Positions 8,394-24,912 of a DNA stretch of 64,000 nucleotides are shown here, one piece after another; position 1 is the stretch's first letter; each line of letters starts with the position of its first letter. Origin of the DNA: Chthoniobacterales bacterium (GTDB lineage: Bacteria; Verrucomicrobiota; Verrucomicrobiia; Chthoniobacterales; UBA10450); NCBI GenBank assembly GCA_035257485.1, contig DATEWZ010000092.1, positions 4,399 through 68,398 of the forward strand. The letters run 5' to 3'. The notes under the pieces were generated by a model, which saw only the letters and a list, made by a program, of their open reading frames with translations, had not been told where the DNA came from and made no database searches. The position numbers and the translations under genes are program-made.

Positions 8394-8873
8394 ATGCGCG
8401 AACTGCTGTTCTATCACGGAATGAGACGCGCCTTGTGTATTGCGATGTTTGGCGTCCTAGCTGCCTCTGGCGCGCCCGAACTTTGTGCGCAAAAGAACCT
8501 CAAGCTGATTAAGGCGTTTTTGTCGACGAATAAAGAGCACACGCCGATGACGCAATTCTCTTCGGAGGTCCCGAAGATCAACGTCTTCTGGAAAGGCGAA
8601 GGGCTCGAGGTCGGCGATAAGATTCGTGCGGTTTTTGTCGCGGAAGACGTTGGCGAAGCCAATCCGAAAGAAACCAAAATCAGCGAGAAGGTGGTGATGG
8701 CTTTAAAGCAAAACCAGGAGAGTTCATTTTTTTTAGCGCGACCGGGCGGACGAACCTGGCCAATTGGCAAATACCGGCTCGATTTTTTTATCAATGATAA
8801 ACTCGCCCAAGTGGTGAAGTTCACCATCGCGCAGGGTCCGGCAATCGAGACTAAACCTCTCGGTTCGCCCTGA
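8394..8873 (+). CDS. secreted hypothetical protein
   Basis: 159 aa with an N-terminal hydrophobic signal-like segment (ALCIAMFGVLAASGA). No family recognised. Confidence 0.55.
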   Translation: MRELLFYHGMRRALCIAMFGVLAASGAPELCAQKNLKLIKAFLSTNKEHTPMTQFSSEVPKINVFWKGEGLEVGDKIRAVFVAEDVGEANPKETKISEKVVMALKQNQESSFFLARPGGRTWPIGKYRLDFFINDKLAQVVKFTIAQGPAIETKPLGSP

Positions 8874-8902
8874 CTTTTCAACGCCGCGACGTTGCGCTAG
8901 CT

Positions 8903-9802
8903 TTGTTGCCGATGTCCTGCGCAAAAATCGATCCAGCCCTGCATCAGCCGCACAAGCCGTCCTGGATCAAGGTCCGCTTGCCGTCGAATCCGGTTTTCTT
9001 TTCGACCAAGGCGCTGATTTCCGATCTGCGCCTGCACACCGTTTGTGAAAGCGCGCAATGCCCGAATCGCTGGGAATGTTGGAGCCAGGGCACAGCCACT
9101 TTCATGATCGCGGGCGATCGTTGCACGCGTGCCTGCGGATTTTGCGCGGTGACAACGGCGAAGCCGTTCGCGCTCGAAGAGGACGAACCGCAACGCGTCG
9201 CCGAAGCCGTCATGCGGATGAAATTGAAGCATGTTGTGATCACTTCTGTCGCGCGGGACGATTTGCAGGACGGCGGCGCTAACCATTTCGCGCGCGTTAT
9301 CACCGCGATTCGAAAAGCGGATCCGTCGATTGTTATAGAGGTTCTGGTTCCGGATTTTCACGCAGACGACGCGTGCATTCAGGCGGTGCTCGATGCCGGA
9401 CCCGAAATTTACAATCACAACATGGAAACGGTTGAGCGACTGACGCCGCTCGTGCGCTCACGCGCGAAATACCGGACTTCGCTAAAGGTTTTGGGACGCG
9501 CGAAAGGACTTTCGCCAAAAACGGTCACGAAAAGCGGCATCATGCTCGGGCTGGGCGAAACCGAACCGGAAATTTTCCAAACGATGGACGATTTACGCGA
9601 GGTCGGGTGTCAGGTCCTGACAATGGGCCAGTATCTGCGCCCGACGCCGAACCATTTGCCGGTGGTGGAATTCATCACACCGGAGCAATTCGATCTCTAC
9701 GGCGAGATCGCGCGCAAAAAGGGATTCGAACACGTCGCATCGGGGCCGCTCGTACGCAGCTCCTATCACGCGGCCGATTTTCATCCGGTTGTCCGCGATT
9801 GA
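8903..9802 (+). CDS. lipA: lipoyl synthase
   Basis: CESAQCPNRWECW and the radical-SAM motif CTRACGFCAV are the two LipA Fe-S cluster motifs. Confidence 0.95.
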   Translation: MLPMSCAKIDPALHQPHKPSWIKVRLPSNPVFFSTKALISDLRLHTVCESAQCPNRWECWSQGTATFMIAGDRCTRACGFCAVTTAKPFALEEDEPQRVAEAVMRMKLKHVVITSVARDDLQDGGANHFARVITAIRKADPSIVIEVLVPDFHADDACIQAVLDAGPEIYNHNMETVERLTPLVRSRAKYRTSLKVLGRAKGLSPKTVTKSGIMLGLGETEPEIFQTMDDLREVGCQVLTMGQYLRPTPNHLPVVEFITPEQFDLYGEIARKKGFEHVASGPLVRSSYHAADFHPVVRD

Positions 9803-10630: not shown

Positions 10631-11170
10631 TCAGCGAGAGTCGTATTGCAGGGAAGATGTGATCTGGTCGAAGCCAGCGACAACAAGATCTTCTTCGCTG
10701 GCAACCTGAGACACAACGTAGATCATTTTGCTGCCAAATCGCTTCTGTTTATAGATACGTGTATGCGGAACACCTTCGCCGACAGCTTTGATTGAAAATT
10801 GTTCGCTCACCGATTTGTATCCATCGCGTTCCTCCGGCTCTCCAAACGTCGACGCGGTGCTGGTTGCAAAACGTGGAAGCTTTTGTTGCGCGTTTGATGA
10901 GAATTCACGCACGAAATCGCTCATCGGAACAGAATCGTCAGCGGTGAAAACTTGAATGATTAAAATCGCTTCTCCCGGTGTTTCGATTACAAGGTGGCGC
11001 ATCGATTCGTTTTGTGAATCTGCGGTGACTTTCCAATTGTCAGGGTATTGGAATTGAATCCCGTCTTTATTGTATGCCTTCGGCTGCTTGACGTTGGCTG
11101 TTCGTTCACAGCTTACCAATGCAAAGGAAATTATCCCCGACAGCAGCGTCGTTGCTACAAGGGGATGCAC
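10631..11170 (-). CDS. hypothetical lipoprotein
   Basis: Lipobox-like N-terminus (LLSGIISFALVSC). 179 aa. Confidence 0.55.
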   Translation of the reverse strand: MHPLVATTLLSGIISFALVSCERTANVKQPKAYNKDGIQFQYPDNWKVTADSQNESMRHLVIETPGEAILIIQVFTADDSVPMSDFVREFSSNAQQKLPRFATSTASTFGEPEERDGYKSVSEQFSIKAVGEGVPHTRIYKQKRFGSKMIYVVSQVASEEDLVVAGFDQITSSLQYDSR

Positions 11171-13400: not shown

Positions 13401-14030
13401 TCACTCCTTTTTTTCGAACGGAGAGAGGTATTCGGAATAACCTTCGTCCTGCATTTTGTTCGTTTGAATGAAACGCAAGGCGGCGGAATTAATGGCAAAC
13501 CGTTGACCGGTCGGCGAGGTGGCGTCCTGGAAAACGTGACCGAGGTGCGAGTTGCTCAATTTTGCTCGCACTTCGGTGCGTTGCATGTTGTGAGAATTGT
13601 CGGCCTGCTCGAATACTGCGTCCGGCGTAATCGGTTTCGTGAACGTCGGCCGGCCTGTTCCGCTGTCGACCTGATCGCGCGAGCTAAAGAGGGGATCGTT
13701 GGTGATCGCGTCGACGTAGATGCCGGGCTTGGTGTTGTTCCAATATTTGTTTCGAAACGCGGTCTCGGTTTCACCCAGCCGCATGACGCGATATTCCTCG
13801 TCTTTTAACTTCGCGTGCAACACGGATTCGCTCGGGACCGACTTGAGATAATTGTAATCGCCCGATTTCTTTTTTCCGGCGAGGATGCTGCTGTAATGCA
13901 GAAATCCAGCCATTACGACAATGGCTGCGGCCAAGCCGAGCCATAAGGTTAAATGCGACGAGCGCTTCTGTCGGATCCGATGCATTGCCGCGAAAATCCC
14001 TGAAATGTTCCTAGTGTTTTGACGGGCCAA
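13401..14030 (-). CDS. membrane-anchored MsrB-like protein, cysteine-free (predicted non-catalytic)
   Basis: TM anchor plus GIYVDAITNDPLFSSRDQVDSGTGRPTF and HLGHVFQDATSPTGQRFAINS. No Cys anywhere in the protein. Confidence 0.8.
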   Translation of the reverse strand: MARQNTRNISGIFAAMHRIRQKRSSHLTLWLGLAAAIVVMAGFLHYSSILAGKKKSGDYNYLKSVPSESVLHAKLKDEEYRVMRLGETETAFRNKYWNNTKPGIYVDAITNDPLFSSRDQVDSGTGRPTFTKPITPDAVFEQADNSHNMQRTEVRAKLSNSHLGHVFQDATSPTGQRFAINSAALRFIQTNKMQDEGYSEYLSPFEKKE

Positions 14031-14114: not shown

Positions 14115-14804
14115 TTATTTTTTCTTTTCGAACAGCGGAAGGTATTGGCCATAGCCTTCTTCCTTCAATTTCTCCACCGGGATGAACCGGAGCGAGGCGG
14201 AGTTGATGCAATAACGCAGGCCGCCCTTGTCGGTCGGGCCGTCATCGAAGAGATGGCCGAGATGCGAATCGCCTTTGTTGCTGCGCACTTCGGTCCGCTC
14301 CATTCCAAACGTGCGGTCCGATTTTTCGGTCACGTTGTTCTTGTCGATCGGTTTGGTGAAACTGGGCCAGCCGCTGCCGCTGTCGAATTTGTCGAGCGAA
14401 GTAAAGAGCGGTTCGCCGCTGACAACATCGACATAAATGCCGGCGCGATGGTTGTCCCAATACTCGTTGCGAAACGGCGGCTCGGTCCCGCATTGCTGGG
14501 TCACGCGATATTGTTCGGGCGTAAGTTTCTTTTTCAAATCGTCAGCGGACGGTTTGGTCGAACTTTGATCAGTGGATGATGGAGTTGTCATAGAAGTCGA
14601 TGGGGCAGGTGAAGCGCTCGGCGCCTGACCGCGAGCGCGGTTGAGAAAAATCAAGACCGCGACCAACGCAACAAATATCACCGCGCAGAATACCAACATT
14701 CCACGCGAGGAAGGCGGCGGACGCTTTGGTAATTGAATCACAGGTGAAAATACGACAGCCCATGGCTGAGGAAAGTTCAATTTGGAAGCGCGCGGCTCAG
14801 TCAC
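14115..14804 (-). CDS. msrB: membrane-anchored peptide-methionine (R)-S-oxide reductase, zinc-less type
   Basis: TM anchor and S/T/P linker, then [28 protein letters not shown] and [22 protein letters not shown] with the catalytic Cys retained. Confidence 0.85.
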
Positions 14805-18117: not shown

Positions 18118-18786
18118 CTACAAACGAGAGAGCGCCTTTTCGGCCAACGCCTTGGAATGGTTGATCTTCGATTCTTCGCTCTCCGGTCCGCCGACGCTGA
18201 TGCGGATGAAGACGTCGTTTTTCAAAACATAGATCGCGCCGCCCATACGGTTCGCGGTCCAATAGGCGGCATCGCCAACACCGTCGATCTTCTTCGGCGG
18301 TTGATCTCCCTCGCGTTCTTCGTGCTCTTCCAAACTCTCCTTCTTTCGCTTGTCGCCCTCTTCCTCTTCTTCTTCTTTTCCGCCTGCGGCCGCATCCGCC
18401 CAACGCGCGAACGAATGCTTCCAAAAGTCCCGCGGGTTTTTCGCCTTTGGCGAACCGGGATTGCTTTGGGTCACGGCGAGGCTAACTGATTTATTGAACG
18501 TCTCGGCCGTGTAAAAACATTGCGCGATCCGATAACTATTATCGGAATTCTCGCTGCCTTTGACGTCCTTGATCGGCGAACCTTGAATTTTCTCGATCTC
18601 GTCCTTGGTGATCAAACCGCAGGCATCGATCTTCGGACGGTTCGAGGGTGGGGAAGATTCGTTCTCCGCTGTCCTAGGTTTTTTGCACCCGGCGGTAGCG
18701 CCGAGGGAAATGATTGCCAGAGAAATCGTCAGGACCTGTGAGGTCGATCTGAGAAAAGGCGTAATCATAAAGTTAAGTTCGTTCAC
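18118..18786 (-). CDS. hypothetical lipoprotein with an acidic/Lys-rich insert
   Basis: Lipobox (SLGATAGC). 222 aa with a GGKEEEEEEGDKRKKESLEEHEEREGD low-complexity stretch. Confidence 0.6.
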   Translation of the reverse strand: MNELNFMITPFLRSTSQVLTISLAIISLGATAGCKKPRTAENESSPPSNRPKIDACGLITKDEIEKIQGSPIKDVKGSENSDNSYRIAQCFYTAETFNKSVSLAVTQSNPGSPKAKNPRDFWKHSFARWADAAAGGKEEEEEEGDKRKKESLEEHEEREGDQPPKKIDGVGDAAYWTANRMGGAIYVLKNDVFIRISVGGPESEESKINHSKALAEKALSRL

Positions 18787-20356: not shown

Positions 20357-21574
20357 TTAGAGCAAGTGACCCAGCTTGGTCTTCTTGGTTGCGAGATACT
20401 TCTCGTTGTGCGGGTTCGATTCGCACCGAATCGGCACCTGCTCAACCATCTCCAGCCCATAACCTTCCAGGCCAACGACTTTCTTGGGATTATTCGTCAG
20501 GAACCGAAATTGTCTGACGCCGAGATCGAAGAGAATTTGCGCGCCCAATCCGTAATCGCGCAGGTCGGCCGGAAGCCCGAGCTTTGTATTGGCTTCAACC
20601 GTGTCGAGTCCTTGCTCCTGCAATTTGTAGGCGTGGATTTTTGCCGCCAGCCCAATCCCACGACCTTCCTGACGCATGTAAACCAGCACGCCGTTGCCTT
20701 CCTCGGAAATTTGGCGCAGCGCCGCATGCAATTGATTCCCGCAATCGCACCGTCGCGAACCGAACACATCGCCGGTGAGACATTCGCTGTGCACCCGCAC
20801 CAGCGTCGGCTTGTCCTTGTCGATCTTACCTTTCACGAGCGCGAGATGATGCATCCCGTCGAGCAGCGATCGATACATGTGCAAATCGAAATCGCCGTAA
20901 TCGGTCGGCAGTTTAATAATCTGCTCCAGCTCGACCAGCTTTTCCCGCTGACGTCGATACGCGATCAAACTTTGGATCGTGCAAATCTTCAGCGCGTGTT
21001 TCTTGCGGAATTCCATCAGCTCCGGCAAACGCGCCATCGTTCCGTCGTCGTGCAAAATTTCACAAAGCACGCCTGCCGGTTGGAGTCCGGCCATGCGCGC
21101 AAGATCGACCGCCGCTTCCGTGTGACCCGCGCGTCGCAACACGCCGCCGTCTTGAGCGCGCAACGGAAAAATGTGGCCGGGCTGCGTGAGATCTTCCGGC
21201 GATGAATGCGGATTCGCGAGCGCGAGAATTGTCGTCGCGCGATCGTAGGCGCTGATGCCCGTCGTCACTCCACGCGCTGCGTCCACCGAAACGGTGAAAT
21301 CGGTCCGCTGCGATTCGCGATTTCGCGTCACCATTCGTCTCAATCCGAGCTGCTCCGCGCGCTCGTTCGAAATCGGAACACAAATCAAACCGCGACCGTG
21401 CATCGCCATGAAGTTCACCGCTTCCGGCGTCACTTTCTCGGCCGCGATCACCAGATCGCCTTCGTTCTCGCGATCGGCGTCGTCAGTCACGATGACAATG
21501 CGGCCCTTGGCGATATCGCTCACGACATCGTCAATCTGGTCGAATTGAAACGTCTCGTTCGCTTTCGTGATCAT
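20357..21574 (-). CDS. ribBA: bifunctional 3,4-dihydroxy-2-butanone-4-phosphate synthase / GTP cyclohydrolase II
   Basis: [11 protein letters not shown] (DHBP synthase) and [18 protein letters not shown] (GCH II zinc site). Confidence 0.95.
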
Positions 21575-21824
21575 TCAGGGAAGCAATATCTTACCGTTCT
21601 CTCGGAGCGTCAGCAACCGCGGTAATCGATCGCTTCTCTCTTAATCTCAATCAATTTTAGCCGCGAATTACACGAATTCTTGAATCGTAGGGCAGGCGTT
21701 GCTGATCACAAAATCCGACAAGCGATTTCAGCAAGATCAAAGAGACTAGGAATTTGCTCGACCGTCAGCGATCGAAAGGCGTATTGATAGCGGCAAGCAC
21801 TCCCCCGACTGAAATATCTCCCCT

Positions 21825-22574
21825 ATGAAAAAGAACTTTGTCCTCCTCGCGATTGTTCCCTTGTCTCTCGTCGGTTGCGCCTTCGATTCCGAAATGCCCG
21901 ATTATCAGTCTGCAATTCGGAGGCAGGGTTATGTCGCTTATTACCAGCCGGTCGGAAATCCGCGCAATGTGAAGGACTGGGACAAATTCGGGCCGGGAAC
22001 AATTCTGCGCGCCAGTAAAACGCAGGAGTATTATTATCCCGCCAATAAGTTGATCGGACCGGCCGGTGTTCGCGCCGCAATGGAGCGGAAGAACGCATCG
22101 CCGGTCAGTTTGTTCAGCGGCAAACGAGTTTCCGGTTACGACATTGACGGCAAGGGCGGCTGGACTTTGGACGCGGCCAACAAAATCGGAGCGTCTTTGA
22201 ATTTGAAGAGCGTGACGAACGTGGACATTCAATTCGGCAACGCTTGGAAAGCCAATCCGAAAGGCGAGGGGGATTGGCACCGCCTCGTCGCCGCAAAGCA
22301 AGGGAAGTTCGATTCGAATTGCCGCGAATCGTTGCGCAAAGGCAATTTCGTCGTCGTTCAGAATGCGATCTGGACCGACAGCATCCGTTATTACTTCAAA
22401 CAAAACAAAGAAGGCGGCGGCTCGGCCGATTATAAATTATCCGATCAAGAGATCGCCAACTTGAGCGCGAAAGGATACAAAGTGATCGAGGGCGGCGTGC
22501 AGGTCGATCAGCCGCGCTTTATCGCTTTCACCCCGCTACCGGGCGTAGACAACGATCTTGAAGGCGGCCGGTAG
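21825..22574 (+). CDS. beta-rich lipoprotein, possible gasdermin-like pore-forming protein (cassette gene 1)
   Basis: Textbook lipoprotein signal MKKNFVLLAIVPLSLVGC (lipobox LVGC, Cys18). The mature ~230 aa are Gly/Asn/Lys-rich with alternating hydrophobic strands. Segments KGNFVVVQNAIWTDSIRYYF and PRFIAFTPLP, plus a short acidic tail, resemble the gasdermin N-domain layout as I remember it. The fold call is unverified. Confidence 0.7.
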   Translation: MKKNFVLLAIVPLSLVGCAFDSEMPDYQSAIRRQGYVAYYQPVGNPRNVKDWDKFGPGTILRASKTQEYYYPANKLIGPAGVRAAMERKNASPVSLFSGKRVSGYDIDGKGGWTLDAANKIGASLNLKSVTNVDIQFGNAWKANPKGEGDWHRLVAAKQGKFDSNCRESLRKGNFVVVQNAIWTDSIRYYFKQNKEGGGSADYKLSDQEIANLSAKGYKVIEGGVQVDQPRFIAFTPLPGVDNDLEGGR

Positions 22575-22588
22575 AGCGCCGATTTTCT

Positions 22589-23551
22589 ATGCCTCCAGCA
22601 TCTCGCGGAAAACTAAAAGTCACGGTCGATGGACTGAATGTTAGAAAATCAGGTTCGATAAAGGGTGCGATCATCGGTTCGCTTAACCAGGGCGACGTTG
22701 TTGATTGGATCGGCTCCTCCAAAGATTCGAACTGGTACAAAATCAAAACGAATGGACTGACCGGATGGTCGTCGCATCGCTTTTTGTTGCCGATTGCTGC
22801 GCCGGCTGCGCCGCATGCTTACGACGCGATCGTTCAGATGGCTGGCAATTCGGCGATCGCCGGTTACTCCTGGAAAAACCGCGGAACGGCTCCTCGCGGC
22901 TACATCAAAGGGATGGCGCTCGTTTATGCGAGAGTCTATTGCAAACTAAAGGCAGGCGATCCATTCGCGCTCGAAATGGCCAAAGCGAATACCGGGAACG
23001 CGGCAAAAGATGCCCTCGCGTGGTATGCGCAAATTTTCCAAAGCGTCGGCATGAGCAACGAAGCCGACGGTGTAAACACATTGCGACACTTGTTCGTTCT
23101 GCTCATTGGGCTCGGTATGCGTGAAAGCTCGGGCCGATATTGCGAAGGCCGTGACCGGTCGGCCAGCAACACCGGCGCCGACACCGCGGAAGCCGGAATG
23201 TTTCAAGTCAGCTTTGATGCGCGCGTCGCGAGCCCGCTTCTTCCGCAACTTTTTCAGCAATACCTGCCTAAACGCACGAGCGGCTTTGTCGAAGTGTTCC
23301 GGGAAGGCGTTCCCTGCACCGCGAAAGATTGGGAATACTTTGGGACCGGTCCCGGCAGAGATTTTCAACAGCTGTGTAAGGAATGTCCCGCCTTTACCGC
23401 GGAATTCACCGCTGTCGGCTTGCGCAACATTCGCAAACATTGGGGACCAATCATCAATCGTGCCGCTGAGGTTCGGCCGGAGGCGAATCTGATGCTCACG
23501 CAAGTCGAGCACATTGTTGATAGCGCGAACCTTTGTCCGGCGGTGACATAG
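22589..23551 (+). CDS. SH3b-domain plus lysozyme-like (E-S motif) protein, no signal peptide (cassette gene 2)
   Basis: The N-terminal GLNVRKSGSIKGAIIGSLNQGDVVDWIGSSKDSNWYKIKTNGLTGWSSHRFL is a bacterial SH3 domain. The C-terminal domain has GLGMRESSGRYCEGRD...AEAGMFQVS, reminiscent of GH23/GH19-type lysozyme-like catalytic motifs. Confidence 0.7.
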   Translation: MPPASRGKLKVTVDGLNVRKSGSIKGAIIGSLNQGDVVDWIGSSKDSNWYKIKTNGLTGWSSHRFLLPIAAPAAPHAYDAIVQMAGNSAIAGYSWKNRGTAPRGYIKGMALVYARVYCKLKAGDPFALEMAKANTGNAAKDALAWYAQIFQSVGMSNEADGVNTLRHLFVLLIGLGMRESSGRYCEGRDRSASNTGADTAEAGMFQVSFDARVASPLLPQLFQQYLPKRTSGFVEVFREGVPCTAKDWEYFGTGPGRDFQQLCKECPAFTAEFTAVGLRNIRKHWGPIINRAAEVRPEANLMLTQVEHIVDSANLCPAVT

Positions 23552-23587
23552 CCCCCAGCGAACGGCCGACGAAAAGGGATTTCTTCG

Positions 23588-24367
23588 ATGCCTAGGATCA
23601 ACACTCGCTCACAAAAATGGTACGGTTGGTTGCCGGATCTTCCCGACCAGCGCGATTTCGCTTACTCAGTCATCAAACCGCGGATCGCGAAATTGCCGAG
23701 CAAGGTCGATCTCCGGAAAAAATGTCCGCCGATTGAAAATCAGGGCGACATCGGGAGTTGCACCGCGCACGCGCTCGTCGGCGCGCTCGAGTTTCTCGAG
23801 CTCAAGGACGGCGGCAAGTTTGTCGATCTTAGCCGGCTCTTTGTTTACTACAATGAGCGCGCGATCGAAGGAACGATCAAACAGGACAGCGGCGCATTTC
23901 TGCGCGACGGAATCAAATCGCTCGCCAAACAAGGCGTTTGTCCGGAAGCGGATTGGCCGTATCACGCGAGACAGTTTACCAGAAAGCCGGCGGCAAAATG
24001 TTACTCCGCCGCTAAGAAACATGTGATCATTTCCTATCATCGCCTTAGCTCGCTCAATGAAATGCGCACCTGTCTCGCCGACGGATTTCCGTTCGTGTTC
24101 GGCTTCACCGTTTACGCGGGGTTCGAATCGGCCGAGGTCGCGAAGACCGGCGTTCTCAATCTGCCTGTCCCAAAAGAAAAAGTTCAGGGCGGCCACGCCG
24201 TCATGGCCGTTGGTTACGATGACTCAGCGAAGCGATTCATCATCCGCAATTCGTGGGACACCGATTGGGGAATGAAAGGCTATTTCACCATGCCCTACGA
24301 TTATCTCGATCCCGACCACAACCTCGCCGACGACTTCTGGACTATCCGTCTGTGCGAAGACGAATAA
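23588..24367 (+). CDS. papain-family (C1) cysteine peptidase, no signal peptide or prodomain (cassette gene 3)
   Basis: NQGDIGSCTAHA (oxyanion Gln52, Cys58), GGHAVMAVGYD (His203) and IIRNSWDTDWGMKGY (Asn221). N-terminal WLPDLPDQRDFAY as in bacterial C1 peptidases. Confidence 0.9.
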   Translation: MPRINTRSQKWYGWLPDLPDQRDFAYSVIKPRIAKLPSKVDLRKKCPPIENQGDIGSCTAHALVGALEFLELKDGGKFVDLSRLFVYYNERAIEGTIKQDSGAFLRDGIKSLAKQGVCPEADWPYHARQFTRKPAAKCYSAAKKHVIISYHRLSSLNEMRTCLADGFPFVFGFTVYAGFESAEVAKTGVLNLPVPKEKVQGGHAVMAVGYDDSAKRFIIRNSWDTDWGMKGYFTMPYDYLDPDHNLADDFWTIRLCEDE

Positions 24368-24414
24368 CAATTTGTGCTAGACGAAAAACCTTTGCCTAAT
24401 TCTCGTTAGACGTA

Positions 24415-24834
24415 ATGCGCGCACCGATTGTGTTCCGCGGATTACTTTTGCTGCTCGCCATGTTTGAGCTTCTTCTTCTCGTGTTGGCACTACCTCAGCT
24501 TGGCGCCCTCGATACTACTATACCGCATGCCGCTGTTCTTGGAATGGCGATTGCCGTTTGTGTTTTGCTGTTAGTGCCATTGATCGGCTTGTGGTTTTAT
24601 CAGCGGTGGGCGCGAATGGCCTTCCTAGTCATCCTTGTAATCGCTGTTTTGGACAGTTTTCATAGGAGCCGTCTTCATCTCAGCGTTCACCTTCCATTCT
24701 TCTTTGGAGCGATACGCTTTTTGCAACACGGCTTCTACGGTGCAGTCACAGCTATGATGTTTTTACCACCCACCAGCGAGTTGTTTAGCAGGCGGTCTAA
24801 CCAGTCGCTCGAGCCAATGTCTGACCCGCGGTAA
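24415..24834 (+). CDS. small 4-TM membrane protein (cassette gene 4)
   Basis: 139 aa with four hydrophobic helices and a hydrophilic C-tail. No family recognised. Confidence 0.6.
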   Translation: MRAPIVFRGLLLLLAMFELLLLVLALPQLGALDTTIPHAAVLGMAIAVCVLLLVPLIGLWFYQRWARMAFLVILVIAVLDSFHRSRLHLSVHLPFFFGAIRFLQHGFYGAVTAMMFLPPTSELFSRRSNQSLEPMSDPR

Positions 24835-24869
24835 AATTTCCAGATGATGACTTCAACACTGCCCTATGG

Positions 24870-24894
24870 CGGCTGATCTCGGTTCCGTCAGCCG
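24870..24894. terminator. stem-loop between convergent cassette gene 4 and deoA
   Basis: CGGCTGA (24870-24876) pairs with TCAGCCG (24888-24894), with an 11-nt loop. No clear U-tract. Confidence 0.3.
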
Positions 24895-24912
24895 TGGCTC
24901 AGCTTGTTCTCG

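Follow-up and report, generated by a model that had tools for sequence, protein, structure and literature searches.

A predicted lipoprotein with a probable gasdermin-like fold, often encoded near cell-wall hydrolases, in soil Chthoniobacterales

The window, a stretch of 64,000 nucleotides from a soil member of the Chthoniobacterales (Verrucomicrobiota; contig DATEWZ010000092.1), contains at positions 21825-22574 of the plus strand a gene for a predicted lipoprotein that resembles bacterial gasdermins (bGSDMs), a group of pore formers that kill cells and are so far known solely as intracellular proteins, and we describe this gene here together with its cluster and its relatives at other loci. 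The open reading frame (ORF) begins with ATG and encodes 249 residues, and its translation is identical to the segments quoted in an earlier, sequence-only reading of the same DNA. It is a real gene, with 45 full-length homologues of about 250 residues and identities down to 48% in a search of 5.8 billion proteins, unlike the overlapping minus-strand ORFs (21765-22403 and others), for which no support was found. The gene opens a cluster of four same-strand genes, spaced by 14-47 nucleotides and placed between ribBA and deoA, that further encodes a protein with a bacterial SH3 domain, a papain-family protease and a small membrane protein. Close relatives of the lipoprotein occur in metagenome-assembled genomes of Chthoniobacterales and Candidatus Udaeobacter, the latter being highly abundant and poorly understood soil bacteria.

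The N-terminus carries a signal peptide (residues 1-17, MKKNFVLLAIVPLSLVG; 21825-21875, plus strand) that consists of a basic n-region (MKKN) and a 13-residue hydrophobic h-region (FVLLAIVPLSLVG) and leads into the lipobox L15-V16-G17-C18, a canonical signal peptidase II signal, as the sequence-only reading had recognised. In the structure model described below, its predicted local distance difference test score (pLDDT) lies below 50, a value that is normal for signal peptides. Cys18, which is predicted to be lipidated as the start of the mature protein, is encoded by the TGC codon at 21876-21878 (plus strand) and is conserved to at least 90% in both of our family alignments, the narrow profile A1 and the broader profile A2. 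The family comprises about 70 metagenomic sequences, and upon scoring lipoboxes by the pattern [LVI][ASTVI][GAS]C within roughly the first 35 residues, combined with a basic n-region and a hydrophobic h-region, we found one in 39 of 70 full-length members under the strict form and in 61 of 70 under a relaxed heuristic, while most of the nine remaining members still show, by eye, a cysteine straight after a hydrophobic stretch. The residue at +2 after the lipobox cysteine is mostly Ala and never Asp among family members. Because the lipobox is conserved in the family, it is not a chance match, and the window protein is very probably an exported lipoprotein, as far as export and lipidation can be predicted from such a signal.

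The mature domain (residues 18-249; 21876-22574 including the stop codon, plus strand) yielded an AlphaFold2 (AF2) model, built with 37 homologues, of pLDDT 80 and predicted template modelling score (pTM) 0.77, with low confidence in the signal peptide and in residues 106-112. Searching this model with Foldseek against 350,542 PDB chains, we obtained six significant matches, all of them to bGSDM crystal structures (7N52, 7N50 and 7N51; E 3.4e-5 to 7.5e-4, probability 1.0), followed by two Vitiosangium bGSDM pore models and then the Trichoplax gasdermin. The result was replicated with P0065, a family member that shares just 25% identity with the window protein (pLDDT 83, pTM 0.80), whose top six matches were again all bGSDMs (E 3.5e-5 to 3.4e-3; probability over both models 0.9-1.0) and whose weaker matches comprised RCD-1-2, GSDME, bGSDM pores, the GSDMA3 pore and the Trichoplax gasdermin. 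In both models, which as query structures are AF2 predictions, every match with E below 0.001 was a bGSDM structure, in line with the gasdermin N-domain and its twisted central beta-sheet with helices on the flanks. The AF2 and Foldseek comparison that the sequence-only reading had proposed as a check thus came out positive twice. A viral structure library (BFVD), searched with the model as a negative control, returned nothing significant, indicating that the Foldseek search does not give significance freely. As the bGSDM structures were released in 2021, later than what we take to be the AF2 training cut-off, the fold was on that assumption not memorised by AF2.

Sequence comparison pointed, less clearly, the same way. 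Profile A2, compared with 177,635 PDB sequences, placed bGSDMs at ranks 1-4, with E-values of 0.0018 and 0.0024 for the Runella protein (9V2S/7N52) and of 0.047 and 0.062 for the Vitiosangium protein (8SL0/7N51). The stretch that aligns with bGSDMs at the sequence level, by A2 against the PDB and by hhalign, spans residues 98-217 (22116-22475, plus strand); its best-aligned part, a helix followed by the hairpin 'KGNFVVVQNAIWTDSIRYYF', is paired with Runella 'KKGNFFVATSLLRAKKMRMQF' and is the very segment that the sequence-only reading had singled out. The human GSDMD string given there for comparison proved exact, corresponding to GSDMD residues 147-172. In hhalign, a three-sequence bGSDM alignment, made up of a weak cyanobacterial homologue from a plasmid and two PDB-derived fragments, matched window residues 126-211 with a probability of 79% and an E-value of 1.6e-5, as against 5% for the single sequence alone. 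A search for bGSDM relatives with a 92-residue Runella fragment found none; the single sequence of the window protein retrieved from the PDB spurious SSB and nanobody matches alone (E at least 0.3), and with the narrow profile A1 the Runella bGSDM came out at E 0.4-0.5, short of significance. Taken together, the models of two family members and the family profile support the gasdermin-like reading first made from the sequence, and the mature domain is very probably a divergent homologue of the bGSDM pore-forming domain.

The family is without annotation in Pfam, NCBIfam, PADLOC and PHROGs (nothing below E 0.05 in the last), and a Pfam scan of the lipoprotein gave merely sub-threshold SSB and DUF6491 noise. 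A match to an unrelated lipoprotein family, which would have contradicted the gasdermin-like reading, appeared neither in the family libraries nor in the PDB sequence searches. Among 1.84 billion cluster representatives, a profile search returned 47 entries: some 30 full-length, lipoprotein-like proteins, down to about 20% identity, along with fragments or other partial matches and four repetitive false positives; no known gasdermin appeared below E 0.001. Scanning 185,579 species genomes with A1 gave two matches, both in metagenome-assembled genomes. We rejected a phage origin of the lipoprotein, having found no relatives in 2.9 million viral contigs (IMG/VR), in 50,697 phage genomes (INPHARED) or in BFVD.

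The most conserved part of the family is a Gly-rich segment (residues 95-129, LFSGKRVSGYDIDGKGGWTLDAANKIGASLNLKS; 22107-22211, plus strand), a candidate membrane-inserting hairpin in which F97, G104, G111, G112 and W113 are invariant in A1 and which A2 pairs with residues 69-110 of the Vitiosangium bGSDM. It is also the least confidently modelled segment, with pLDDT 56-71 and values below 50 at residues 106-112. Hydrophobic and polar residues alternate at residues 121-137 and 187-205. A conserved segment of low model confidence combined with alternating strands would fit a region that refolds into membrane hairpins, a pattern that is in itself unspecific.

At the other end of the protein, 12 residues remain after the last predicted strand (FIAFTPL). 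This C-terminal tail (residues 238-249, LPGVDNDLEGGR; 22536-22571, plus strand), delimited from the alignment and the AF2 model, contains a conserved D244 and [ILV]245 and forms a short helix at residues 241-244 in the window model, the counterpart helix in the P0065 model having a pLDDT of about 87-97; in P0051, P0071 and P0073 the tail is absent and the proteins end at the last strand. The sequence-only reading was right in giving the window protein an acidic tail of about ten residues. A role of this tail as an inhibitory peptide, at which that reading had hinted, found no support: the Runella peptide, at 21 residues, is far longer, and some members lack the tail. In the profile alignment, window residue 217 corresponds to Runella residue 200, beyond which 32 residues remain in the window protein, compared to 47 that precede the Runella L247-G248 cleavage site. 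By co-linear extrapolation, the window protein therefore ends before the cleavage-site position, and a bGSDM-type inhibitory peptide is missing.

Upstream of the lipoprotein gene, a 250-nucleotide intergenic region (21575-21824, plus strand) separates it from the divergent ribBA and is, as read from the sequence, the presumed promoter region. The sole sigma-70-like match upstream (21545-21574) scored no better than shuffled controls, a clear Shine-Dalgarno sequence was not found ahead of the gene, and promoter scans, terminator scans and base-composition profiles of the cluster were uninformative (G+C fraction 0.50-0.55 in the cluster versus 0.55-0.60 in the flanks).

Downstream, 14 nucleotides after the lipoprotein stop codon, lies the gene for a 320-residue protein (22589-23551, plus strand) with an N-terminal bacterial SH3 cell-wall-binding domain (SH3_3, E 1.7e-11), a region that matches the SH3 regions of autolysins, and with a 240-residue uncharacterised domain. 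The latter has no Pfam match; it matches phrog_33367 (E 3e-51) and has homologues in the Bdellovibrio phages phi1422, phi1402 and MAC3UK. From a 'RESSG...AGMFQVS' motif that resembles lytic transglycosylases, this domain is possibly lysozyme- or transglycosylase-like, and it may be an undescribed muralytic domain. The third gene (23588-24367, plus strand) encodes a 259-residue cysteine protease of the papain family (C1A), xylellain type (Peptidase_C1, E 3e-21; xylellain 3OIS, E 4.5e-66). Neither the SH3 protein nor the protease has a signal peptide, and each begins at the earliest start codon that the preceding in-frame stop allows. The sequence-only reading had described a neighbouring protease that lacks a signal peptide; the lack of a signal stands, and the protease is not a direct neighbour, as the SH3 protein gene lies in between. 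The last gene (24415-24834, plus strand) encodes a 139-residue membrane protein with 3-4 transmembrane segments predicted by a hydropathy scan and without a match in family libraries. None of the four proteins of the cluster matched a PADLOC-DB family. Elsewhere in the window, two tandem minus-strand ORFs (13401-14030 and 14115-14804) with N-terminal hydrophobic segments resemble, by eye, paralogous MsrB-type methionine sulfoxide reductases, and two further minus-strand ORFs (18118-18786 and 10631-11170) have lipobox-like N-termini, the former with an acidic poly-Glu/Lys stretch (GGKEEEEEEGDKRKKESLEEHEEREGD).

To place this cluster in context, we compared 17 distinct loci of the family, counting a hydrolase if it lay within three genes of the lipoprotein gene. 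A cell-wall hydrolase was found near the lipoprotein in 10 of the 17 loci, and these enzymes belong to at least seven families: the SH3 protein with its unknown domain, GH75-like proteins with PG_binding_1 and with or without CHAP, GH75 alone, Amidase_2, Amidase_3, VanY/Peptidase_M15_4, GH25 and a DUF2272 protein. Most of them have no signal peptide, the exceptions being the Amidase_3 of locus L002 and the GH25 of L027. Two loci, L001 and L024, share the slot between ribBA and deoA with the window; across the three, the lipoprotein is 89-90% identical and the C1 protease 88% (the value for the window and L001 at the same position), whereas the hydrolase genes are three different ones. With the lipoprotein as the constant and the muralytic enzyme as the variable partner, the arrangement appears to follow the logic of lysis cassettes or bacteriocin release, unlike effector-specific immunity.

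Such immunity is one alternative that we considered. A periplasmic immunity or protective lipoprotein of the Tai/Tsi kind would guard against the leaderless hydrolases and proteases acting as contact-delivered antibacterial effectors, and the juxtaposition of leaderless peptidoglycan hydrolases and a periplasmic lipoprotein is indeed the classical effector-immunity layout; stand-alone copies could be orphan immunity genes, and in the closest clade the lipoprotein is always accompanied by the same C1 protease. Immunity proteins are, however, specific to one effector family, while this lipoprotein adjoins at least seven unrelated hydrolase families and hardly changes when the hydrolase is exchanged. 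Further, its 232 mature residues are large for an immunity protein, and its predicted fold is the one found in pore formers. The loci that we read showed no type VI secretion genes, and locus L028 has a separate, dedicated C1 inhibitor (Inhibitor_I42). We rejected effector-specific immunity because a one-to-one pairing with a single effector family was not observed, and we consider the broader protective role improbable.

Proteases were found in 6 of the 17 loci, of the C1 type in the window, L001 and L024, each time as the second gene after the lipoprotein, and at close range in L028, and trypsin-like in L002 and L018, and none of them carries sensor or repeat domains. Together with the gasdermin fold, a protease gene in the window cluster and in five other loci calls to mind the canonical bGSDM anti-phage system, in which the protein would be cytosolic, inhibited by its C-terminal peptide and released by the protease on infection, with the hydrophobic N-terminus as a membrane-targeting or acylation device. 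The trypsin-like proteases, the Trypco1 domain of L018 and the conserved Asp-[ILV] pair in the tail are in line with it. Against it, the family-wide lipoprotein signal would put the mature protein and the leaderless protease in different compartments, so that the topological caveat voiced in the sequence-only reading is a real one. In addition, the tail is at most 12 residues long, PADLOC gives no gasdermin match, and 11 of the 17 loci are protease-free. An activating role of the protease was likewise left unsupported, proteases being found in fewer loci than cell-wall hydrolases. Failing on location, on the C-terminal inhibitory peptide and on the match to defence models, the canonical cytosolic system was rejected, and we regard it as very improbable.

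Seven of the 17 loci are stand-alone, with no hydrolase or protease nearby. Such loci would suit an envelope lipoprotein that forms no pores, whose gasdermin-like sheet would bind peptidoglycan, lipids or an envelope partner in cell-wall remodelling or housekeeping. The location of the window cluster among the housekeeping genes ribBA, deoA and lpxB would suit it as well, as would the strong conservation (64% mean column identity in A1) with invariant Gly, Pro and Trp motifs that could form a binding site, and models that lie nearer to the closed, inactive gasdermin state than to the pore state. The rare and patchy occurrence of the family (47 clusters in 1.84 billion representatives; two matches in 185,579 species genomes) is nonetheless unlike a core envelope function, every protein of the gasdermin fold characterised so far is known to form pores, and conservation is highest in just that segment where polarity alternates and the model is of low confidence. 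A role without pores is, on this balance, quite unlikely.

Membrane proteins recur in the clusters. At the position of the 139-residue protein, L001 and L024 encode small membrane proteins that are not homologous to it; the last cluster gene of L024 (L024:8564-8890, 108 residues) shows a weak BamE-domain match (E 6e-5), and those of the window and L001 are unrelated multi-pass membrane proteins. In three loci, the gene that immediately follows the lipoprotein belongs to one unannotated membrane-protein family, a second recurrent partner without a Pfam match (L028:5522-6730, L004:2706-3632 and L005:8757-9092). P0045, a metagenomic protein of 244 residues, is a chimera that joins about 170 N-terminal residues of this membrane-protein family to the last roughly 70 residues of the gasdermin-like lipoprotein. 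Compared with the window (21575-24900), L001 (L001:5843-11617) and L024 (L024:3842-8890) have two extra upstream genes, for a membrane protein of about 400 residues and a secreted protein with a MjaV (PF27324) match.

Two loci differ more widely. In L018 (L018:7307-13288), a family member of 47% identity is followed by leaderless genes for an Amidase_2, a DUF2272 protein, a membrane protein, a Trypco1-domain protein and a 606-residue trypsin-like protease, a layout that resembles a conflict-system island. The DUF2272 protein has an 'ESS...AGIFQVS' motif like that of the window SH3 protein, and BLASTP gave no link between it and the C-terminal domain of the latter. In L028, two C1A protease genes (L028:1693-2463 and 8657-9790), one of them apparently split, adjoin the gene for the chagasin-type inhibitor, and a DUF900 alpha/beta hydrolase gene ends exactly at the start of the lipoprotein gene.

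Neighbourhoods of this kind could also be seen as an envelope-degrading arsenal in which, much as in arms-race loci, one enzyme takes the place of another from one close relative to the next. The lipoprotein would then be an offensive pore-forming toxin, displayed on the surface or on outer-membrane vesicles, that attacks other cells, whether bacteria or soil eukaryotes, and that forms a lytic cocktail with the co-encoded hydrolases, proteases and esterase-like enzyme for competition or scavenging. The inhibitor beside the C1 protease of L028 suggests self-protection, the hosts are soil bacteria of the Chthoniobacterales and Ca. Udaeobacter, and toxins against non-self membranes are the ancestors of gasdermins in the proposal of Johnson et al. 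(PMC10153256). Beyond the lipobox, however, we saw no signal for secretion or surface exposure; most of the enzymes are without an export signal, there is no receptor-binding domain, and we saw no genes of a secretion system in any locus that we read. We therefore consider an offensive toxin unlikely.

The best explanation in our view, with a probability of roughly 40%, is a gasdermin-type, membrane-permeabilising lipoprotein that belongs to a module for lysis or release and acts on the membrane from the periplasm. After Sec export and processing by signal peptidase II, a mature domain of 232 residues would be held flat on the membrane at its periplasmic side by a lipidated cysteine that lies a few residues before the fold (about 6-8 residues separate Cys18 from the first secondary-structure element of the AF2 model), roughly at the place of the palmitoylated Cys3/4 of bGSDMs. 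Upon a trigger, oligomers would form in which the Gly-rich segment (95-137) and the hairpin at 175-205 have refolded into beta-hairpins that span the membrane. The resulting breach of the inner or outer membrane would give leaderless hydrolases and proteases access to the peptidoglycan or to the exterior; the small membrane proteins of the clusters could act in a holin-like manner, and the protease, itself leaderless, could cut back the short C-terminal tail after entering the periplasm. The parts of this model are not equally firm. Whether the lipoprotein forms pores we judge to be evenly balanced, and its cooperation with the adjacent hydrolases in lysis or release is a tentative proposal. 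The fullest version appears rather doubtful to us: an exported lipobox gasdermin whose large pores, assembled at the periplasmic face, would release leaderless folded hydrolases and proteases, and which would be intermediate between secreted toxins and cytosolic, protease-gated gasdermins.

Several observations weigh against the lysis or release module. The main weaknesses of the finding, for which the evidence is all computational, are the modest TM-scores to bGSDM structures (0.34-0.45 over both models), which indicate a divergent relative of bGSDMs and no close copy, and the marginal sequence E-values that link the lipoprotein to gasdermins; the Pfam Gasdermin and PADLOC models gave no match to the lipoprotein at E up to 1. 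The neighbours in L002 carry signal peptides, so that the logic of a leaderless cargo fails there, and the catalytic nature of the window SH3 protein is read from its motif. The cluster membrane proteins are mostly unrelated to one another, and none matched a holin family. The stand-alone loci fit poorly with a module, and a lone and unregulated pore former would be hazardous.

The gasdermins characterised so far, from bacteria, fungi and animals, are all known as cytosolic proteins that, once licensed, attack the membrane on its cytosolic side. We found no paper on an exported or lipobox gasdermin in the full-text literature, whose coverage leaves out most subscription journals, so that this absence is no proof. 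The usual adjacency to cell-wall-degrading enzymes suggests that the gasdermin fold has a use outside the cytoplasm that is so far undescribed. If this holds true, gasdermin-type pores can also be made from the opposite face of the membrane, with the general lipidation enzymes of bacteria taking over from self-palmitoylation, and the repeated association with leaderless peptidoglycan hydrolases that replace one another suggests a novel way in which folded enzymes lacking an export signal are released. A lytic or scavenging machinery in relatives of Ca. Udaeobacter would also be of ecological interest.

The closest known relatives are the bGSDMs of Runella zeae (7N52), Bradyrhizobium tropiciagri (7N50) and Vitiosangium (7N51), together with the pore structures 8SL0, 9A84 and 9V2S. 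Shared with them are a length of about 230-270 residues, the predicted fold with weak but specific profile similarity over residues 98-217, a lipid-bearing cysteine just before the fold, as predicted here, and a protease gene in some of the clusters. In bGSDMs, this cysteine is a palmitoylated N-terminal Cys3/4 (PMC13475620, PMC10153256), whereas in the window protein it is residue 18 in a lipobox and would be lipidated by Lgt and LspA; with its Sec and signal peptidase II signal, the window protein would act outside the cytoplasm. In contrast to the C-terminal inhibitory peptide of 20-30 residues in bGSDMs, the tail of the window family is very short and sometimes lacking. The proteases of bGSDM systems are caspase-like, subtilase, CHAT or trypsin-like enzymes, often with sensor or repeat domains, whereas those found here are C1A papain-type or plain trypsin-like and not obligatory, and the dominant neighbours are cell-wall hydrolases.

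Trichoplax GSDM (8JYV) and Neurospora RCD-1 (8JYY/8JYZ) are short, consist essentially of the pore-forming domain and are activated without removal of a large C-terminal domain. These cleavage-independent eukaryotic gasdermins are weaker structural matches, below significance (E 0.1-1), and differ in being cytosolic and without a lipid anchor. Phage lysis cassettes (holin, endolysin and spanin, the last with an outer-membrane lipoprotein) and the lipoproteins of colicin lysis or bacteriocin release resemble the clusters in the proposed breaching of the envelope and in that a lipoprotein stands beside leaderless hydrolases and small membrane proteins, with interchangeable hydrolases of different catalytic classes next to a constant partner. 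The resemblance is functional only, with no relation in sequence or fold, and no phage or colicin genes flank the lipoprotein. The o-spanins and colicin lysis proteins have roughly 30-130 residues and are not known to form beta-barrel pores, compared to 232 residues in the mature window protein.

A last comparison concerns the bGSDM-like proteins of Johnson et al. (such as AF-A0A2N3PBA1), which are fused to cytolysin-type Ig domains and from which those authors argued for an origin of gasdermins in pore-forming toxins (PMC10153256). They set a precedent for non-canonical, protease-free bGSDM-like proteins, and the window family would, if our reading is true, provide a concrete candidate for the proposed ancestry in toxins that act from outside (PMC10153256). 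Both families have a divergent bGSDM-like domain that was found by structure search and does not generally occur in protease operons. The proteins of Johnson et al. carry a C-terminal Ig-like beta-sandwich related to domain 4 of cholesterol-dependent cytolysins and come from Gammaproteobacteria (PMC10153256); by that description, the window family is set apart as a single-domain, lipobox-anchored and hydrolase-linked family of the Verrucomicrobiota.

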